Below are positions 1 to 7,170 of a DNA stretch of 7,588 nt, piece by piece. A model generated the notes under the pieces. That model did not search any database and was not told the DNA's origin. It saw nothing but the letters and a program-made list of their open reading frames with translations. This DNA comes from Candidatus Thorarchaeota archaeon. Its GTDB lineage: Archaea > Asgardarchaeota > Heimdallarchaeia > Hodarchaeales > Hodarchaeaceae. Within the stretch, counting starts at the first letter, position 1; each line of letters begins with the position of its first letter. A program made the translations under genes and the position numbers. Where the stretch lies: NCBI GenBank assembly GCA_048882505.1, contig JBHLRO010000053.1, forward strand, positions 1 to 7,588, written 5' to 3'.

Positions 1-207
1 GGTCAGGAGTACGTCTCCGTCGACCACGGCTACCCCGAGCCGGTCAACAACGAAAGGAGGTTCTGCCACTGGGCCTTCGCCGACATACAGAAGTACCTCG
101 TCTTCTTGGACTTCGAGAACGAACTCTATGGCCAAGGGAAACCAGGCTATGCCGCCTGCACGGACGGGACGGCGACGGTGGTGTTCAGGCTCGAGAGGGT
201 CGAGTAG
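1..207 (+). CDS. TIGR04076-like small Cys-containing protein, 3' part (5' end outside window)
   Basis: Hand translation of frame 1 is open from base 1 to TAG at 205-207: GQEYVSVDHGYPEPVNNERRFCHWAFADIQKYL...GYAACTDGTATVVFRLERVE*. It has the FCxWAxxDI and C-T-D-G...VFRLER motifs shared with the next ORF. Confidence 0.8.
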   Translation, partial: GQEYVSVDHGYPEPVNNERRFCHWAFADIQKYLVFLDFENELYGQGKPGYAACTDGTATVVFRLERVE

Positions 208-216
208 GCGGTCGCC

Positions 217-528
217 ATGAACAAGGTGAGGATCACCGTCTTGAAGTGCTTCACGAAGGAGGAGATCTTCGGGGACGACATCCCCGAGGATCTTGTCGAC
301 TCGGTCACTCCCTGCGAGGCGCTCTCCCCCGGCCAGGAATTCGTCATGGAGAGCATGGTCTGCCCCCCGGGCTTCTGCAACTGGGCCTTCGGAGACATCT
401 ACAGGGACATCGCCCAGCTCATGATGGGAGGGGACTTCCCCTTCATAGGGAGGCCGGGGGTGATGTTCTCCTCGTGTACGGACGGGAAGAGGCCGGTAAT
501 ATTCCGGCTGGAGAGGATCGATGAATAA
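217..528 (+). CDS. TIGR04076-like protein (103 aa)
   Basis: MNKVRITVLK...PCEALSPGQEF...CPPGFCNWAFGDIY...SCTDGKRPVIFRLERIDE matches the family pattern as I recall it (KITVL / CP..G..F / GFC..AW..I / C.DG.RPV.F.LE). High GC like the upstream paralog, which ends 9 nt before its ATG. Confidence 0.85.
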   Translation: MNKVRITVLKCFTKEEIFGDDIPEDLVDSVTPCEALSPGQEFVMESMVCPPGFCNWAFGDIYRDIAQLMMGGDFPFIGRPGVMFSSCTDGKRPVIFRLERIDE

Positions 529-913
529 TAAAAGACTAGAGTGTAGAAGATTGAATGATATCAGCACATACCAATTCCGGTTTACTCTCCGCATGACGGC
601 GCTATATTTCGTATTAACGTTTGCAATAATTTGGGCAATATTGATTCCAGCGCTATCGTCGGTGCCCCTCGTTCTCTACGAGATAGGACTGCTCGGTATA
701 GAGAGTCTAGCACCTTTTTTCGTTCTGGCAGCCTTTGGACCATTCATAGCATCAGTCGTTGTGATGGGAATAAGCGGAGGGCGATCTGGACTTATTCAAT
801 GATTACGCCAAGTCTTCAAAATACGTATGCCGATCGTTCTGTATCTGGCTGGCGCGTTCTTCCTTCCTATTGGCATTGGGGCATTACACTACAATCTATA
901 CTGGGTCCTAGGA
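521..913 (+). pseudogene. CPBP (CAAX/Abi-type) intramembrane protease 'A', N-terminal fragment with internal TGA at 800-802
   Basis: YFVLTFAIIW...AAFGPFIASVVV..GGRSGLIQ*LRQVFKIRMPIVLYLAGAFFLP...LYWVLG is a typical CPBP N-terminus, and the frame continues through the TGA. The start could be 521 or 593. Confidence 0.7.
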
Positions 914-946
914 GAAGGATCAGACATACCAACAGTTGTCGCGCGC

Positions 947-952
947 GAGGTG
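947..952 (+). promoter_or_regulatory. Shine-Dalgarno-like GAGGTG for the ATG at 959
   Basis: GAGGTG lies 6 nt upstream of ATG 959 and overlaps the last G of the CGCGCGCG tract (940-947). Confidence 0.65.
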
Positions 953-958
953 TATGCG

Positions 959-1975
959 ATGGACAAGATTAGGAATTTGGTTGCCAGAAATCAGCTAAAA
1001 ACGTTCTTTCTTCTCACCTATGTAATTACGTGGGGTTTGTGGATTCCTTTTACACGATCGTATCTCCAAGGCGGTTTTTTTGCCGGGATTTTCATTGGAT
1101 GGGGGTTATTTGGTCCCGCACTAGCAGGGATCTTTATTACGTGGGTCATAAATCCCGAGCGGAATGATAAAAGTCGAAAGAAACCGCTTTTGGTTTTTTG
1201 CATGGGGTTGGTTCTCTCGGTCTTGGTCTTTATCCTGAACACTCGGAAGTTGGTGGACTTATCTTGGACCACCGAAATCATGATCGGTGTGATCTTCATG
1301 GGATTAATGGTGGCAATTCCACCGGCCTTTGTTATCTCATCTGCTTTTACTGTCAATCAGAAAGTGAGAATATACTTACATTCTCTAATCAAACCACGCG
1401 GCTCGTTGGTTTATTACCTTATCGCGTTGTTTGTGCCACCATTCCTATTCTGGGGTGGATCCCTCATCTCAGATGTGCTTGGCCAAACCGCATATTCGAA
1501 TCCTTCACCACTGATTGGATGGAATGCTGTTCATGTCCTATCGATAGCCTTCATTTACCACTTCTTTTTTGCTAATTCTTTAGGAGAAGAAGTTGGCTGG
1601 CGTGGTTTTGCGCTTCCGAGATTACAGGCTCGATACAGTCCGCTTGTTGCGAGCTTGATCATTGCGTTGATGTGGTTTGCATGGCACTTGCCTTTGAAGT
1701 GGATGACCCCGGATACATTACCACATCTTTTTTATGCCCTTAACTTTATCCCGCAAAGCATTTTCCTTACCTGGATTTACAATCGAACCCATGGCAGCAT
1801 CCTGGCCGTTGGAATCGCTCATGTATCAAATAACATAGGTGGAGAAATTCTTTTCCCGATTACCAATTCTTGGTTGATCGTGACCTTTGTTGCAGCGATT
1901 GTACTGATCCTCATCGATCACATGTGGGATAAAGAATACCATGGTCAATTCCTCGAGTCACCTCAGTGCCACTGA
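959..1975 (+). CDS. CPBP family intramembrane glutamic endopeptidase 'B' (338 aa)
   Basis: All catalytic motifs are present: EEVGWRGFALPRLQ, WFAWHLP, AHVSNN. The N-terminus MDKIRNLVARNQLKTFFLLTYVITWGLWIP parallels paralog C. Its own RBS favours a start at 959 over the ORF-track start at 827. Confidence 0.9.
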   Translation: MDKIRNLVARNQLKTFFLLTYVITWGLWIPFTRSYLQGGFFAGIFIGWGLFGPALAGIFITWVINPERNDKSRKKPLLVFCMGLVLSVLVFILNTRKLVDLSWTTEIMIGVIFMGLMVAIPPAFVISSAFTVNQKVRIYLHSLIKPRGSLVYYLIALFVPPFLFWGGSLISDVLGQTAYSNPSPLIGWNAVHVLSIAFIYHFFFANSLGEEVGWRGFALPRLQARYSPLVASLIIALMWFAWHLPLKWMTPDTLPHLFYALNFIPQSIFLTWIYNRTHGSILAVGIAHVSNNIGGEILFPITNSWLIVTFVAAIVLILIDHMWDKEYHGQFLESPQCH

Positions 1976-2305
1976 GAATCTGTACGCGCACGGCATCTAC
2001 CGCTCATGAACTATAACAATACAACTTTTGGATGGTATCTTTTCAATTTGATTCCTCTTACGTTCGTTCTCAATTGGCTGTACCTCAAGTCGCATCAGAG
2101 TGTCATCCCAGTCATGCTACTACATTCAGGTATAAACGTGATTTCCAGTTTTATTCCTATACCGGGAGATGTGCTTCAGGGACTCGGAACTTACATGTTC
2201 CTTAGAGGAATCGTTTACTGGGGTATGGCCATCGTTCTTTTAATCACGACAATGGGCAGACTGGGCTATGATACAACGGATTGCTCGAATGCTAGGTTAC
2301 CTTAA
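1976..2305 (+). pseudogene. CPBP protease 'A', C-terminal fragment
   Basis: In frame after gene B's stop: ESVRA-RHLPL-MNYNNTTFGWYLFNLIPLTFVLNWLYLKSHQSVIPVMLLHSGIN... RHLPL corresponds to WHLPL (CGG vs TGG) and the HxxxN motif is present. The EExxWR motif is absent. Confidence 0.75.
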
Positions 2306-2321
2306 AACTGATTTTGGGTTT

Positions 2322-2337
2322 GGGCCATAATTTTATC
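2322..2337 (+). repeat. Intergenic bulged-hairpin motif, copy 1 (GGGCCATAATTTTATC)
   Basis: Exact 16-mer also at 4239 and 5196, and with one mismatch at 5890. Lies between convergent CPBP stop codons. Confidence 0.9.
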
Positions 2338-2399
2338 CCCCACACACACATTGGCCTCTGGCGCTGAGGCTGCGGGTGTTATTGGGGCTGCCAATGAAT

Positions 2400-3413
2400 C
2401 TATGGTTGGTGATGTTGGTGAGCATGCGCAGGGTTTCCAGAGGACAATTTATTCCACATTTTATCAATAAGGACCAGGAATATCATTGAGGCTGGAACTA
2501 GTAAAATCGCACCTAATGTCCCTGGGAGAAAACGACCAGTTGTGTTCATTGAGGCATGAAACAAAGCCGCCACTAAAATGCTTCCCTTAGTACGATTGTA
2601 GAACCAAGTAATTATGACGGTTACAAACAGGATGAGCACCCATTCAACTAAAGTGTCCTCAAGAGTCTTTGCTTCTATTCCCCCGAATCTCGCTGGAGCA
2701 TGCCAGACAGCCCAGAGTACCCCCAGGATAATGCTAGAGGTGAGAGGGCTGAATTGGCCTTGTAGACGGGGTAAGGCAAAACCACGCCAACCGGGTTCCT
2801 CGGAGAGTCCACCGTGGATAGCGTTCATTAAGAATATGAGTAATATCATTCCCACTGACCTTACATCCACAATTGCATATTCAGGATTCGGGATGCTCAT
2901 TCCTAAGCCGCGACTCATAAACATGCCAAGGAGCCATATAACGGGAATAAAAACGAGTGTAAGGAGATAGTAACCTAGATTCTCTCTCGTGGCAATATAT
3001 GTGGCGAGATGAACTCGGACGCCGGGTATACGTGAATAGATGGATGATACGACATAAGCCGGTAATAGCGCATTTATTGCACTGATGACTAATAACATGA
3101 GGCTATAGGCAGTTTGGTCTATCGCAAGTTGACCGATGAGTATTATAATGAACGCTATTATCCATGTGCTGATGAAGCTGATTGCTATTTTTTTACGGTT
3201 GCCCTGTTTTGGACTTGGATTGAGGATGGCGGACAACCCAATGCTAACGAGTGCGGGTCCGAAGACTCCTAGACTGATTAAAGGTATCAGGATATAGTAA
3301 CCGTCGAGTACGAGTGGTTGAAGAGGTATCCATAGTCCCCATGAGAACGCATATGTGAATACAAAGTATGCCATAATTTGATGTCGTTTAATATAATCAG
3401 TTAAATTGGTCAA
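2400..3413 (-). CDS. CPBP family intramembrane glutamic endopeptidase 'C' (337 aa, TTG start)
   Basis: Motifs SEEPGWRGFALPRLQ, WAVWHAP and FHASMN; multiple TM segments; RBS upstream. Confidence 0.92.
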   Translation of the reverse strand: MTNLTDYIKRHQIMAYFVFTYAFSWGLWIPLQPLVLDGYYILIPLISLGVFGPALVSIGLSAILNPSPKQGNRKKIAISFISTWIIAFIIILIGQLAIDQTAYSLMLLVISAINALLPAYVVSSIYSRIPGVRVHLATYIATRENLGYYLLTLVFIPVIWLLGMFMSRGLGMSIPNPEYAIVDVRSVGMILLIFLMNAIHGGLSEEPGWRGFALPRLQGQFSPLTSSIILGVLWAVWHAPARFGGIEAKTLEDTLVEWVLILFVTVIITWFYNRTKGSILVAALFHASMNTTGRFLPGTLGAILLVPASMIFLVLIDKMWNKLSSGNPAHAHQHHQP

Positions 3414-3419
3414 AGTAGT

Positions 3420-3426
3420 TCACCTT
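3420..3426 (-). promoter_or_regulatory. Shine-Dalgarno AAGGTGA for the TTG at 3413
   Basis: The minus strand reads ggaaAAGGTGAactactTTG, a 6-nt spacing. GGTGA is the typical archaeal SD core. Confidence 0.7.
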
Positions 3427-3531
3427 TTCCAAAGTTCCTGGTGCGAGTCAATTTTACATCTCTCCTTGTCTTCCTGCACCACATAATGGAGCTAATCACA
3501 GATTAAGACTTACGAGAAAAAGATAGAGGAT

Positions 3532-3580
3532 GGTTTGGTTCGGTTTGGTTTGAGGTTAAATTTAACCCCCAAACCCAAAC
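3532..3580. repeat. Imperfect inverted repeat with a perfect palindromic core GGTTAAATTTAACC (3554-3567)
   Basis: GGTTTGGTTCGGTTTGGTTTGA-GGTTAAATTTAACC-CCCAAACCCAAAC. The right arm is the reverse complement of the left flank of motif copy 4. Confidence 0.8.
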
Positions 3581-3832
3581 TTCTTATGCATCTACCTTTC
3601 AATTCTGTAAAATTCAGGAGCGCATGCGAAAGCCCTATTCTTTTTTCCAAAGCCTTAAAGATAGAAAAACCATTAAAAACCATGATCGATCGAAATTAAA
3701 TTATTATACATCTAAGCATTATTATTTTAATTAGATAATTCTCATGGAATTTCGAAGTGATTTTTCATAGTCTACAATACGTTCACTACTCTTTTTAAAA
3801 GCTGCCTAAAAGTTTTTCTCGCGCGAGTCAAC

Positions 3833-4051
3833 CTATATTTTGATAAGTACTATGCAAGAGATGATGGATAAGGCATTGATGAGGAATAAAGTTAGAATGA
3901 GGGTGATTACTTGTTCGATTTTTAGGAAGTCTTCGTTACAGGCCAGGCTGGAAAAATAACCAGCGTCGGTACGCCTCTGCAATACCTTCCTCTCCCGTCC
4001 AGTTAAACCCCGAGAATGAATTTGTATAATTTTTATTGATTCCAAATACAT
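3833..4051 (-). pseudogene. Possible degraded small membrane-protein gene
   Basis: 72-codon ORF with a hydrophobic C-terminus (VITLILTLFLINALSIISCIVLIKI). An adjacent frame reads YVFGINKNYTNSFSGFNWTGEEGIAEAYRRWLFFQPGL*, suggesting a frameshift. No family recognised. Confidence 0.3.
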
Positions 4052-4119
4052 ATTACTGATACAAAATTATGGGTTTAAGCCTTCTCGATAAAGACAAACC
4101 TCCCACGGATCGCGCGAGT

Positions 4120-4238
4120 ATACCTTTACCAACCTCTGAAAGATGTGTGGGTGTATAGAGTGTGTATGTATGTAGGTAGGGGAGGGAAGGGAGAGGAGAG
4201 AGGGTGTGGCGGGGGTCGGTGAGGGAAGTGTGTGTGTG
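4120..4238 (+). repeat. Low-complexity G/T/A-rich tract (GT runs, pure-purine run 4178-4204)
   Basis: Contains gtgtgtatgtatgtaggtaggggagggaagggagaggagagagggtgtggcggggg...gtgtgtgtgtg and lies directly left of motif copy 2. Confidence 0.8.
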
Positions 4239-4254
4239 GGGCCATAATTTTATC
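4239..4254 (+). repeat. Intergenic bulged-hairpin motif, copy 2
   Basis: Exact GGGCCATAATTTTATC, about 105 nt past the nucleotidyltransferase stop. Confidence 0.9.
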
Positions 4255-4359
4255 TCCCTCATACATGCTTTTCAACTTAAAGAAATAGTTACTTGGGGTA
4301 ACCGCTACTCCATTTGATCACTTGTTTATATTATTTGAATCAGATACGGTGAGAAAATG

Positions 4360-4917
4360 TTAGAGAAATCTCTTTAATATTGAAAATATGCGTGCGTTAG
4401 TGAAATAGAAGGAGTTGAAGAAGGAGCGTTTGATCTTTCCACCCGAGTGGCGTTTTTCTAGCTCGTTCCACACGTCGATGATGGTTGTCTTTTCGTGTCC
4501 AAACTGGATTTTCTCTTCTTTTAATCGCCTGTAGTGTTGGTTCCATTCTTCCTCTATCTCAGGGTTCTCAGCGAAGTAGTCGTTGATCCTTCCGAGTAAG
4601 GGTTCGATCGTGTTCTCACGATCGAAGAGGAGCTTTGCCTTCCCCAGGGGGTGCAGCAGGTATGGGACCGTGTCCACGCTTTGGGTGAGGACCTGATGAG
4701 TGAAAAATAGGTTTCCCACCTTTATGCCGTCGATCACCATGTTTTCTATCCCTGAGGATGGCTTTTGTTCAAGCAAGACTGTCATTACGTCGATGTCCGA
4801 TTTTTCGTGGTGTGTTCCGGAGGCCACGGATCCGAAGACGAGGAAGCCGAGGGTGTTCAGATCGCCTTTCGCCTTCACGAGCAGTTGTTCGAGTATCTGG
4901 TCGTGCTTCATTTGCAT
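4360..4917 (-). CDS. Pol-beta superfamily nucleotidyltransferase domain protein (~183-185 aa)
   Basis: FLVFGSVASGTHHEKSDIDV fits the hG[GS]x9-13Dh[DE]h signature, followed by a helical C-terminal extension. The second ATG (4911, MKHDQ) fits the upstream GAAAGGT RBS-like sequence better. Confidence 0.88.
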   Translation of the reverse strand: MQMKHDQILEQLLVKAKGDLNTLGFLVFGSVASGTHHEKSDIDVMTVLLEQKPSSGIENMVIDGIKVGNLFFTHQVLTQSVDTVPYLLHPLGKAKLLFDRENTIEPLLGRINDYFAENPEIEEEWNQHYRRLKEEKIQFGHEKTTIIDVWNELEKRHSGGKIKRSFFNSFYFTNARIFSILKRFL

Positions 4918-4953
4918 ACCTTTCCATAAACTTGTTACGGTAAATGTTGTGTG

Positions 4954-4972
4954 TATTTAAACATTCCTTTAG
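4954..4972 (-). promoter_or_regulatory. Putative archaeal BRE/TATA promoter of the nucleotidyltransferase gene
   Basis: The minus strand reads ctAAAGGAATG-TTTAAATA, a purine-rich BRE-like block then a TATA-like box at 4961-4954, about 40 nt upstream of the start codon. Confidence 0.5.
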
Positions 4973-5033
4973 GTTTCGCGCTCACGATTCGCGCGTGGGA
5001 CATCACACCTGGTTGGGTGATTTCCGGGACTAC

Positions 5034-5171
5034 AGAGACATTTATGGGATCGTAGCCCAAATGAAGATGGGTGAGGGTTCCCCCTTTGTCGGGAGACTAG
5101 GGGAGATGTTCTCCTCCTGCATGGACGGGAAGAGGCCGGTGATATTCCAGTTGGAGAGGCTCGACGAATAA
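5034..5171 (+). pseudogene. 5'-truncated TIGR04076-like paralog of 217..528
   Basis: Ungapped hand alignment to 391-528 gives 106/138 nt and 30/45 aa identical, ending in the same DE-TAA. The N-terminal half and the FCxWA motif are missing. Confidence 0.85.
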
Positions 5172-5195
5172 AAAAAATTACGACATACGCAGTTG

Positions 5196-5211
5196 GGGCC
5201 ATAATTTTATC
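5196..5211 (+). repeat. Intergenic bulged-hairpin motif, copy 3
   Basis: Exact GGGCCATAATTTTATC, 24 nt after the pseudogene stop, followed by a C/A-rich tract. Confidence 0.9.
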
Positions 5212-5275
5212 CACACACCCGCCGCACCGCACACACCCTCTATCACACCCCCTAGACCTCACACCTTTACGAAAA
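5212..5275 (+). repeat. Low-complexity C/A-rich tract
   Basis: cacacacccgccgcaccgcacacaccctctatcacaccccctagacctcacacc lies directly right of motif copy 3. Confidence 0.75.
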
Positions 5276-5354
5276 GAAAATTTACCGTAATCGTTTTCGA
5301 GCTAAGCGCGCGATGGGTAGGAATAAATATTCCCGTTTAAGGTTCTGAAACAAG

Positions 5355-5807
5355 GTGACTGTTTCACGGAACTACACGGAATACATTGGACATAGAGCCC
5401 GTCTGATCAATGTTTTAGCACTCCTATGTGGTTTCACCTTTACTTCAACGATCATTCTCGTCACGAACCTCCCAGAACCTATCCCTCTTTCATCTCAGTT
5501 AATTCTTCTCTTCTCTGCTGTTCTACTGGATCTATTTGTACTACTACTTTTAGTCAACATGCTAAACATCTTTTTTTATATAGAAGATATTCCAGAACCC
5601 ACTAGAACAACAAATTTCATCAGTGCTATGTCGGTTGTGACAATCGGTTTCTGGGGCTTTTTACTGCCATGTATATTTCTGATATTTGGGTTTGAATTTT
5701 TAGCCTTATCTTCAGGTATAATTTGGGCGTTTATTTTAGTACTTGGGATAGCACTCATCTGGAGACCGTTTGAGAGAAGACGAAGACACGTTGAAAAGCC
5801 ACATTAA
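5355..5807 (+). CDS. Hypothetical membrane protein, about 4 TM helices (150 aa, GTG start uncertain)
   Basis: Long ORF in AT-rich DNA with four hydrophobic segments and a basic C-terminal tail (RPFERRRRH), consistent with the positive-inside rule. Confidence 0.75.
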   Translation: MTVSRNYTEYIGHRARLINVLALLCGFTFTSTIILVTNLPEPIPLSSQLILLFSAVLLDLFVLLLLVNMLNIFFYIEDIPEPTRTTNFISAMSVVTIGFWGFLLPCIFLIFGFEFLALSSGIIWAFILVLGIALIWRPFERRRRHVEKPH

Positions 5808-5889
5808 CCGCACGCGCTGGGCATAAGAAGATGCCCTCCGATCCAACTATATCAAGTATCTCGTGCGCGCTAGTGTGTGTTTGGGTTTG

Positions 5890-5905
5890 GGGCCATAGTT
5901 TTATC
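5890..5905 (+). repeat. Intergenic bulged-hairpin motif, copy 4 (GGGCCATAGTTTTATC)
   Basis: One mismatch (A>G) that keeps stem pairing as G:T. Lies between convergent stop codons. Confidence 0.85.
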
Positions 5906-5934
5906 CACCAAACGCGCGCGTGTTCTAATGAATC

Positions 5935-7170
5935 TCAGCTATCCGAATTCGCTACTTCTGTTGTCTTCAATGTCTTAGGCATGGTGATAAGTAGCGGGAT
6001 CCTAATGAAAACATCGGCTATTATATGGAAAAGAAAGGGTGCCTGAGGGGAGATATAGGTGTACAGGAGGCCGCCAAGGATGGGGGCGGGAATCCGGAAA
6101 ATCCCCCTCAGAAGCTCTCTTATGCCCATCCACCTACCCCTCTCTGACGGATCCACAAGCTCGTTCCTGTAAGCGGCTAAAATGCTCAGACTGGGTTGGA
6201 AGGTCCCCCGGAGAGCCCAACCTATTACAATCAACCGTGGATCGGGAGTATACAGTAGTATTAGGGTGGAAGCGTGGAAGAAGGGCCTCAGGAGCAATAT
6301 CGTCCTTATCCTCCCTATCCTGTCAGCTAGGTGCCCCAGGGGGATGGAGGACACTATGCTGACCAGAGCCGTAGCAACCCCCATGGCTCCGATGATCATG
6401 GGGCCGGCCCCTTGCTCCTCCGCCGCGTAGACCATTATGTAACGGGCCATGACCGTGAAGGAGGATGCACTCAAAGTGTCGATAATCAGCCACCTCTTTA
6501 GAACTGGACTGCCCGAGAGCACCGAACGGAACGCCCCGATTAAGGATGGTCCAAAGCCCTGTCCGAGACTTTGTGTCCCACGAAGTTTGATGCTCACATA
6601 GACAGATATCAGTACGAGCCCTGCGAACTCGATGAGGAAGAGGACATTGATGCTGTCTACGGAGAGCCCACCTAGCTGGGTTAGGATGGCCCCAGCCACC
6701 AAGGGGATAACAATGTTGGGAATCATGGAGAGTGCTGTGACGGAGGCGAATCCCGTCGCCCTGTCATCGTCCCTCAGGGAGTTGGCAATGATTACATTCT
6801 CGACGCCACTAGCGCAGAAGAATGCTAGGGTCGACAGGGCGGTGGCCATCGCTATCCAGACCCAGTCCCTTGCGTAGAAATATGTCAGGGGAACCAAGGC
6901 CTGGGTGAAGATGGTGACGATAAGTATCTTTGCAGCACTATACCTGTCGATAAGCCAGCCGAAAGGGTAGGAGATGATGGAGTTCATCAACGCCCCGATA
7001 GAGCCTACAAAGCCCAGCTGAACGAAGCTGGCCCCAAGGAGGCGGATGTACACGTTGACATAATTAACGGTCAAGTTGTTGAAGAGGGAGAACCCAACAC
7101 GCTTGATGAGGACCAGCTTGAAGTTGTGGCCCTGTCTCCTAACAAAATCCAGTAGCTCTTCAACGACCAT
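5935..7170 (-). CDS. Major facilitator superfamily transporter (411 aa)
   Basis: About 12 hydrophobic segments, with MFS motif-A-like loops in both halves: FGWLIDRYSAAK and LGHLADRIGRIR. Confidence 0.92.
   Translation of the reverse strand: MVVEELLDFVRRQGHNFKLVLIKRVGFSLFNNLTVNYVNVYIRLLGASFVQLGFVGSIGALMNSIISYPFGWLIDRYSAAKILIVTIFTQALVPLTYFYARDWVWIAMATALSTLAFFCASGVENVIIANSLRDDDRATGFASVTALSMIPNIVIPLVAGAILTQLGGLSVDSINVLFLIEFAGLVLISVYVSIKLRGTQSLGQGFGPSLIGAFRSVLSGSPVLKRWLIIDTLSASSFTVMARYIMVYAAEEQGAGPMIIGAMGVATALVSIVSSIPLGHLADRIGRIRTILLLRPFFHASTLILLYTPDPRLIVIGWALRGTFQPSLSILAAYRNELVDPSERGRWMGIRELLRGIFRIPAPILGGLLYTYISPQAPFLFHIIADVFIRIPLLITMPKTLKTTEVANSDS

Follow-up and report, generated by a model that had tools for sequence, protein, structure and literature searches.

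We analysed a stretch of 7,588 nucleotides (hereafter the window) that makes up the entire 7.6-kb contig JBHLRO010000053.1 (contig C53) of the 4.3-Mb archaeal assembly GCA_048882505.1. The window is probably a row of tandemly inserted, mostly non-autonomous units of casposon type that lack a polymerase and that Cas1 would have inserted into one AT-rich target; we give this reading a probability of about 0.62. The joints between the units belong to a repeat family found in Bathyarchaeia. Units of this family are gained and lost at the core of the repeat, have the anatomy of inverted repeats next to duplicated targets, and are associated with a stand-alone Cas1. This association and the known chemistry of casposases suggest that Cas1 catalyses the insertions.

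A repeated site divides the window into gene-sized units

The window contains four copies of the 16-mer GGGCCATARTTTTATC, all of them on the plus strand and intergenic (4/4 copies). The copies start at 2322, 4239, 5196 and 5890, giving spacings of 1917, 957 and 694 nt. Only 0.01 copies were expected by chance from 200 dinucleotide-preserving shuffles, and four copies were reached in 0/200. The four co-oriented intergenic sites described in the first-pass annotation were thus confirmed, positions and spacings included. Alignment of the four copies and the family logo showed that the conserved block is longer than the 16-mer and reads G GGGG CCATA RYY TTATCC; the flanks of the four copies are GT-rich on the left and C/A-rich on the right. 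An additional, fifth joint is present at 3552-3567 and has the same arms with another centre, GAGGTTAAATTTAACC. The sites had been described as distinct from integron attC sites, which agrees with their GGGTTT...AAACCC arms and with the lack of RYYYAAC/GTTRRRY boxes.

Each site had also been proposed to be able to fold as a bulged hairpin. Single-stranded DNA folds of the four sites have energies between -2 and -6 kcal/mol; compared with shuffles, their z-scores run from +0.9 to -1.4. The arm types of the two sides combine freely. A stable hairpin is not supported, as the folds are no better than those of shuffles and the arms do not covary across sites. No known RNA or tRNA was found to anchor the sites in 10-12 loci searched with Rfam at gathering thresholds and with ARAGORN.

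Joints probably consist of unit ends and a duplicated target

The joints of the window and the unit between the first two of them are as follows.

2313..2358, plus strand: joint 1, comprising the right inverted-repeat tip of the upstream unit, TTTGGGTTTGGG (2313-2324), the target CCATAATTTTATC (2325-2337) and the left inverted repeat of unit A (2338-2358)
2338..4241, no strand assigned: unit A, 1904 bp between two direct copies of CCATAATTTTATC
3530..3580, no strand assigned: second-type joint within unit A, a near-perfect palindrome GGTTTGG...GAGG TTAAATTTAA CCCCCAAACCCAAAC with the arms of the main family, a different centre and a fold z-score of -1.95
4221..4254, plus strand: joint 2, comprising the right inverted repeat of unit A (4221-4241) and then the duplicated target CCATAATTTTATC (4242-4254); homology to the related contig L054 begins exactly here
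5195..5212, plus strand: joint 3, with a host-like left flank made of a TIGR04076 3' end and a spacer
5889..5906, plus strand: joint 4, GGGG CCATAGTTTTATC C, with an A-to-G variant in the centre

The terminal inverted repeats of unit A are 21 nt long and imperfect (86% complementary), with tips that are perfect over 13 nt (CCCCACACACACA). They directly abut both copies of CCATAATTTTATC (13 nt each); the target duplications expected of casposons measure about 14-15 bp. Measured against casposons, the window has the inverted repeats and a 13-nt target duplication and has neither Cas1 nor PolB; with no Cas1 encoded in the window, its units would be non-autonomous derivatives. A family-B DNA polymerase was likewise recognised by Pfam or NCBIfam neither in the window nor in the Cas1 units of genome G002, L237 and L240. 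The window also holds a perfect 14-nt inverted pair, 3567-3580 with 5879-5892.

Relatives of the associated Cas1 (53-68% identity) in genomes without the exact core lie in ordinary transposon-like insertions, laid out as host, 13-14 bp duplication, CCCCAAACCC...GGGTTTGGGG, duplication, host. One of them, L240, has the direct 13-mer ATAAAAATTAAAT on both sides and inverted repeats of about 100 nt around Cas1, which start with CCCCAAACCCAAACCC and end with GGGTTTGGGTTTGGGG; plain host DNA lies outside. L240 is a single-copy element, and its target has no arms. L237 is a 6.2-kb Cas1 element with tips like those of L240, placed between two copies of the 14-mer xxATAAYTTTATxx. The inverted repeats of L241, 270 nt long, are of a different type. 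Pfam searches of L240 and L237 recognised no recombinase other than Cas1.

Two elements of the L240 or L237 kind placed side by side in one target would produce GGGTTTGGGG + target + CCCCAAACCC, which is the site seen in the window. On the basis of its sequence, each site can therefore be read as the right inverted-repeat tip of one unit, the duplicated target CCATARTYTTAT(C) and the left inverted-repeat tip of the next. Arm types match within units (18/26 vs 14/35) and do not match across a site (35/107 vs 33/93). This fits inverted repeats that are carried by the units, whereas a hairpin site would predict the opposite.

GCGCGC/CGCGCG motifs were also observed in intergenic DNA near unit ends, in the window at 3820, 4111, 4990, 5306, 5865, 5913 and 7244. 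Across the family they are enriched 2-3x within 160 nt of sites, and could represent a subterminal binding or promoter motif.

Units are gained, lost and re-partnered at the core

The sister contig L054 (compared after reverse-complementation) contains window 1-533 at 93% identity, a spacer of 18-24 nt and then window 4239-4458 at 95%. Window 534-4238 is lacking from L054, and the left flank of site 3 meets the right flank of site 2 there exactly at the core. Contigs of four public runs were compared with the window, with a word length of 31 that exceeds the shared core. The 694-bp unit that separates sites 3 and 4 is missing exactly from run X6, where 5192 is joined to 5887 with a shorter side of 41 nt and the depth over 5314-5819 is zero. 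In run X3 position 4226 is joined to 5873, so that 4227-5872 is skipped, and runs X7 and X8 contain further flank partners. Other right flanks follow the left flank of joint 3 in L054, X6 and X7; X7 adds one more partner for this TIGR04076 left flank. A reading of the X7 joint, 533->2318, as the TIGR04076 flank joined to unit A was rejected: its far side is only 20 nt long, which equals the core, and a different flank follows.

The same behaviour was seen across the family. Among internal homology breakpoints, 11% fall within 10 nt of a site centre, vs 0.7% of random points. Left-homologies extend through the core, and right-homologies begin inside it. Re-partnering is found on both sides, with 16 right-flank clusters that have at least two left flanks and 8 left-flank clusters that have at least two right flanks. 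Clean pairs of filled and empty sites from different samples were obtained for a 2.5-kb unit (L147 vs L130) and for a 1.38-kb unit (L151 vs L133 and L130). One of four automatic pairs, L148 vs L222, was discarded as it reflects arm similarity alone.

The first-pass annotation had regarded region 2322-5905 as a candidate cassette array of gene-sized modules and had called for a comparison of strains. This view held: from strain to strain, whole units come and go and change partners, the breakpoints fall within the motif, and L054, X6, X3, L147/L130 and L151/L133+L130 all differ at the core. The motif does not lie behind conserved housekeeping genes, and rearrangement breakpoints map to it.

The repeat family of Bathyarchaeia

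A metagenome scan for the motif matched at least 120 contigs. The family loci comprise 134 contigs (726 kb) with 200 sites at up to 3 mismatches and none of the reversed pattern, so that the family has at least 200 members. In the family logo the block G GGGG CCATA RYY TTATCC is preceded by (GGGTTT)n or (GT)n and followed by CC(AAACCC)n, C(CA)n or CTCACTTCMAC. The same arms also surround a second type of core, GGGGTTAAATTTTATCC or the palindromic GGTTAAATTTAACC, with 12 copies in the family loci and 0 in the reversed control.

The core was found in 14/201 evenly sampled Bathyarchaeia genomes, with a maximum of 18 copies, and the reversed control gave 0. When one genome of each prokaryotic species was scanned, Bathyarchaeia metagenome-assembled genomes (MAGs) accounted for 11/73 exact matches, and the extended flanks were shared by those alone. 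Bathyarchaeia contigs of 168-300 kb bear the same arrays. Viral contigs of IMG/VR contained no match to the motif.

Neighbouring sites are co-oriented in 56/70 cases, at spacings of 373-3859 nt, mostly 0.4-3.9 kb. Co-oriented sites enclose 61 unique units, with a median of 1.4 kb in length. A single open reading frame (ORF) of at least 80 aa is present in 32/57 units. ORFs run on the same strand as the site in 61 cases and on the opposite strand in 45.

The commonest cargo is a DUF4760 membrane-protein gene (31 ORFs in 19 loci). These genes often stand in tandem with a site between the copies (L164:574-1300, L172:7015-7700, L014, L142, L173, L178), and a conserved leader of about 45 nt, CTCACTTCCACCTGATACTCAACCGTGA..., lies between the site and the start codon.

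A stand-alone Cas1 accompanies the sites

Clustering of the ORFs of the site loci gave DUF4760 as the largest family and Cas1 as the second (PF01867, E 1e-43; TIGR00287, E 1e-48). Similarity to Cas1, in the form of full-length genes or 3' remnants, was found by tblastn in 27/134 loci, and similarity to tyrosine recombinases in 3/134. Genome G002 contains intact Cas1 genes inside units that are bounded by two co-oriented sites, and one of these units has the whole joint at either end as a 33-nt direct repeat. Of nine Cas1 matches in G002, four are no more than 2.1 kb from a site, where chance would give about 0.1 by our arithmetic. Alignment of the protein with solved Cas1 structures, best with 4n06 and also with the casposase 6OPM, extends over the catalytic residues Glu, His and Asp. 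Cas2, Cas4 and PolB were not recognised in the Cas1 loci, and TRF detected no CRISPR array in a Cas1 locus.

A tyrosine recombinase or an HUH/Y1 transposase had been suggested as the enzyme to look for near the sites; neither is associated with them. Within 10 kb of a site there were 0/15 tyrosine recombinase matches (PF00589) in G001 and G002. The HUH Y1 transposase (PF01797) is absent from G002 and G202, the most site-rich genomes, and elsewhere never adjoins sites. The idea of an undescribed system with its enzyme encoded outside the window stands as regards the location of the enzyme. It does not stand as regards the kind of system, which is a known one, with a stand-alone Cas1 and casposon anatomy.

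Remnants of the 3' end of cas1 (the last 40-180 codons, ending ...QTIETLINEEA...) were observed in many copies per genome, often less than 1 kb from a site, in G002, G163, G202, G116 and others (for example L014:216-329 and L133:629-1096). They look as if they were decayed or internally deleted elements that retained that end. L198:108-2494 contains an apparent operon of a winged-helix protein, an intact cas1 and a Dam-type (D12) DNA methyltransferase, and the pair of Cas1 and methyltransferase recurs in L169.

Proposed mechanism and alternatives

In the mechanism that we propose, a few autonomous units elsewhere would encode the stand-alone Cas1, a polymerase-less casposase of the 'family 5' kind. 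This enzyme would join the 3' ends of a unit at staggered positions in a specific AT-rich target of 13-14 bp. Repair of the gaps would duplicate the target, so that every insertion yields two usable targets and units accumulate as an array. Each joint would then consist of the right-repeat end of the left unit (...GGGTTTGGGG or ...GTGTGTGGGG), one copy of the target CCATARTYTTAT(C) and the left-repeat start of the next unit (CCCCAAACCC... or CCCCACACAC...). Mobilisation in trans would apply to small units that have kept repeat tips and a single cargo gene, for a membrane protease, a transporter, a DUF4760 protein or another product, and recombination between identical joints would account for deletion and re-partnering of units.

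Several observations weigh against this proposal. No Cas1 is encoded in the window, a full Cas1 is present in only 2/61 units, and some site-rich genomes or MAGs show Cas1 fragments only. For these reasons the mobilisation in trans of units without Cas1 is an assumption. Many Cas1 relatives, moreover, are found in genomes without this core. Within the window, inverted-repeat ends were looked for in interval 4255-5198 and none were found; the arm types in 2338-3551 and 3581-4241 are mixed, with no matching inverted repeats; and the core copies on either side of the 694-bp unit differ by one base. Core variants at positions 9-11 follow neither flank consistently and do not give the placement of the crossover. 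A breakpoint at 530-533, at the TIGR04076 stop codon, recurs in L054, X7 and X8 without a recognisable site.

Integration of circles that carry one full palindromic site would leave an identical sequence pattern, which makes transposition and site-specific recombination inseparable by sequence and also counts against the proposal. Such an integron-like process, in which the ~30-bp palindrome is the site on circular cassettes, an unrecognised recombinase acts on it and Cas1 is merely a frequent cargo, appears unlikely to us but carries appreciable weight. It would account for the precise gain and loss of units at the core, the free re-partnering of flanks and the predominance of co-oriented sites; a circle joining the ends of a unit would restore a complete site, and by our reading of the logo the core can be divided into a 6-bp spacer and, on either side of it, imperfect inverted arms of 11 bp. 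It does not account for the lack of association of tyrosine recombinases or Y1 HUH enzymes with the sites, or for L240 and L237, in which Pfam finds no recombinase besides Cas1. The single-copy L240 sits in an armless target in the manner of a transposon, arm types correlate within units and not across sites, and attC boxes are missing.

A family of palindromes similar to repetitive extragenic palindromes (REP) or terminators, with rearrangements due to ordinary homologous or illegitimate recombination between short dispersed copies, would make the link to Cas1 a by-product of shared variable islands. The first-pass annotation had named REP-like or terminator repeats as its alternative. This explanation would cover the intergenic location of the sites, their frequent place just 3' of genes, their T-run, their partly palindromic sequence and their dispersal over several contigs per genome. 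We consider it improbable and do not favour it: hairpins are no better than shuffles (the fold z-scores are not significant), arms do not covary across the site, the arrays are co-oriented with gene-sized spacing, the unit tips are identical to those of Cas1 elements with clear target duplications, and Cas1 is close to sites in G002 (4/9 within 2.1 kb vs ~0.1 expected). Least credible of all is an artefact of assembly or binning, a chimeric contig stitched at a short repeat. The contig is indeed a compositional outlier in its bin with a mosaic of GC content, and it is the sole contig of the assembly with the motif. The shared core of 16-20 nt is, however, shorter than the word length of assemblers, stretches that span joints are at least 99% identical in independent runs (X3: 4847-5203 and 5174-5807), and the same arrays occur on the 168-300 kb Bathyarchaeia contigs.

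Other units of the window and origin of the contig

The remaining segments of the window are as follows.

1..528, plus strand: left neighbour of the array, two tandem TIGR04076-family genes (1-207, partial; 217-528) with a GC content of 53-61% and 93% identity to L054
534..2324, no strand assigned: segment left of joint 1, with a small ORF, a CPBP protease gene (827-1975, plus strand) and a CPBP fragment (2006-2305); absent from L054
4255..5198, no strand assigned: interval between sites 2 and 3, with an MNT-like nucleotidyltransferase gene (4360-4917, minus strand), a TIGR04076 3' fragment (5031-5171) and then a 24-nt spacer
5212..5892, no strand assigned: unit of about 680 bp with a single gene for a 150-aa membrane protein (5355-5807, plus strand), terminating in GTTTGGGTTTGGGG (5879-5892)
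5935..7170, minus strand: MFS transporter gene in the unit right of joint 4, with relatives in Bathyarchaeia

Unit A contains a gene for a CPBP/Rce1-type membrane protease (2400-3413, minus strand) and an AT-rich non-coding part. No site is present at the left boundary of segment 534-2324, at about 530-533. The TIGR04076 fragment and the spacer make up the right end of interval 4255-5198, and this end shares homology with the array's left neighbour. TIGR04076-family genes form tandem paralogues, of which L054 has five (245-2869; 41-97% identity) and the window two and a 3' fragment. Their GC content of 53-61% is well above that of the surroundings, and a conserved 24-nt spacer and then the target site follow the last copy.

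C53 is most probably Bathyarchaeia DNA that was misbinned into an Asgard MAG, because the motif occurs neither elsewhere in the host assembly nor in its class and the family is found in Bathyarchaeia. The other contigs of the assembly contained no motif in a family-like context at up to 1 mismatch, and the 18-mer core (up to 1 mismatch) was found in 0/82 other genomes of the Asgard class of the host, 21 of them of the same genus. The tetranucleotide composition of C53 is an outlier in the assembly (r = 0.81 vs a median of 0.956), and its GC content is mosaic. Relatives of the MFS transporter in Bathyarchaeia are 62-68% identical, and the Asgard class gave no match at E <= 1e-30. L054, 93-95% identical to the window, was binned in a 'Desulfobacterales' MAG.

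One observation sits badly with misbinning: the array's CPBP gene, at 827-1975 (match over 956-1948), has 82% DNA and 73% protein identity to a gene on another contig of the same Asgard assembly (G000:C31:23717-24721). The copy on contig C31 has an in-frame TAG, no site-like flanks and no counterpart in the 21 genomes of the same genus. The similarity may reflect transfer of cargo across lineages or a link of C53 to that organism. As a practical warning, the binning of short mosaic contigs of this kind is close to random: an Asgard MAG received the one studied here, and a Desulfobacterales MAG its sister contig.

Comparison with known systems

Family-2 casposons of Methanosarcina stand in tandem, parted only by a shared 14-bp target duplication, with repeats and targets that are specific to the element (Krupovic et al. 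2016, PMC4779613). The arrays described here resemble them in the adjoining units with terminal inverted repeats, the one shared duplication, the repeated use of a target and, as we propose, a Cas1 homologue as integrase. The published case consists of two elements of more than 8 kb, each with cas1 and polB, in a tRNA gene target (PMC4779613). Here, in contrast, there are at least five units, 0.4-4 kb long, which carry 1-2 cargo genes, hardly ever cas1 and never polB, and use a dedicated AT-rich 13-14-mer as the target.

Casposases of 'family 5', most of which are reported without a polymerase, are close to archaeal Cas1 (Salgado et al. 2022, PMC9755687). The Cas1 of the site loci resembles them in its features: it stands alone, has intact catalytic residues and is similar to the archaeal type I-A kind, with no PolB, no recognised C-terminal helix-turn-helix and a very variable gene neighbourhood. 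That study presents proteins and a few inverted repeats, without a specific target, target duplications, Cas1-less units or arrays (PMC9755687). We found no paper on Cas1-based cassette arrays or non-autonomous casposons, and the literature that we searched did not contain single-gene units without Cas1, arrays of at least five units, this target or turnover of units at the level of populations. The window and its relatives would represent a Cas1-associated family that is reduced to small cargo units piling up at one target, with arrays that differ between natural populations. To our knowledge, described casposons are large, rare and self-replicating, with two in tandem at most.

Integron cassettes with their attC sites share with these loci the arrays of single-gene modules, a repeated and partly palindromic site and the gain and loss of modules from strain to strain. 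The differences are that IntI and the R and L boxes are missing here, that the polarity of the arms is reversed and that genes lie in either orientation relative to the site (61 same, 45 opposite). The duplicated core and the inverted-repeat ends point to transposition.

CRISPR arrays, with repeats of 24-47 bp, spacers of 26-72 bp and the Cas1-Cas2 enzyme, are similar in that the associated enzyme belongs to the Cas1 family, the joint GTTTGGGG...CCCCAAAC (~28-33 bp) is directly repeated and insertion would regenerate the repeat. The 'spacers' here are instead units of 0.4-4 kb that bear genes and have inverted-repeat tips of their own, and Cas2, Cas4, leader or effector genes were not seen. 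A CRISPR array proper was rejected in view of the spacings of 373-3859 nt, the lack of a tandem array by TRF and the lack of Cas2 and Cas4.

It has been proposed that the CRISPR adaptation machinery descends from casposons. If Cas1 indeed moves the units in trans, it would be the engine of a cassette system that is integron-like in its outcome. Part of the turnover of the accessory genome would then be explained in Bathyarchaeia, which belong to the most abundant archaea of sediments, and a testable model would be available for the rise of a repeat-spacer array by repeated insertion into one palindromic target. More tentatively, a stand-alone Cas1 may run an integron-like form of gene capture, in which single-gene mini-casposons without Cas1 are inserted successively into one 13-14 bp target and ~30-bp joints GTTTGGGG...CCCCAAAC come to resemble CRISPR repeats with gene-sized spacers. 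In that case the arrays could bridge casposons and CRISPR as a still-living intermediate, and genes might flow between sediment archaea by this route.

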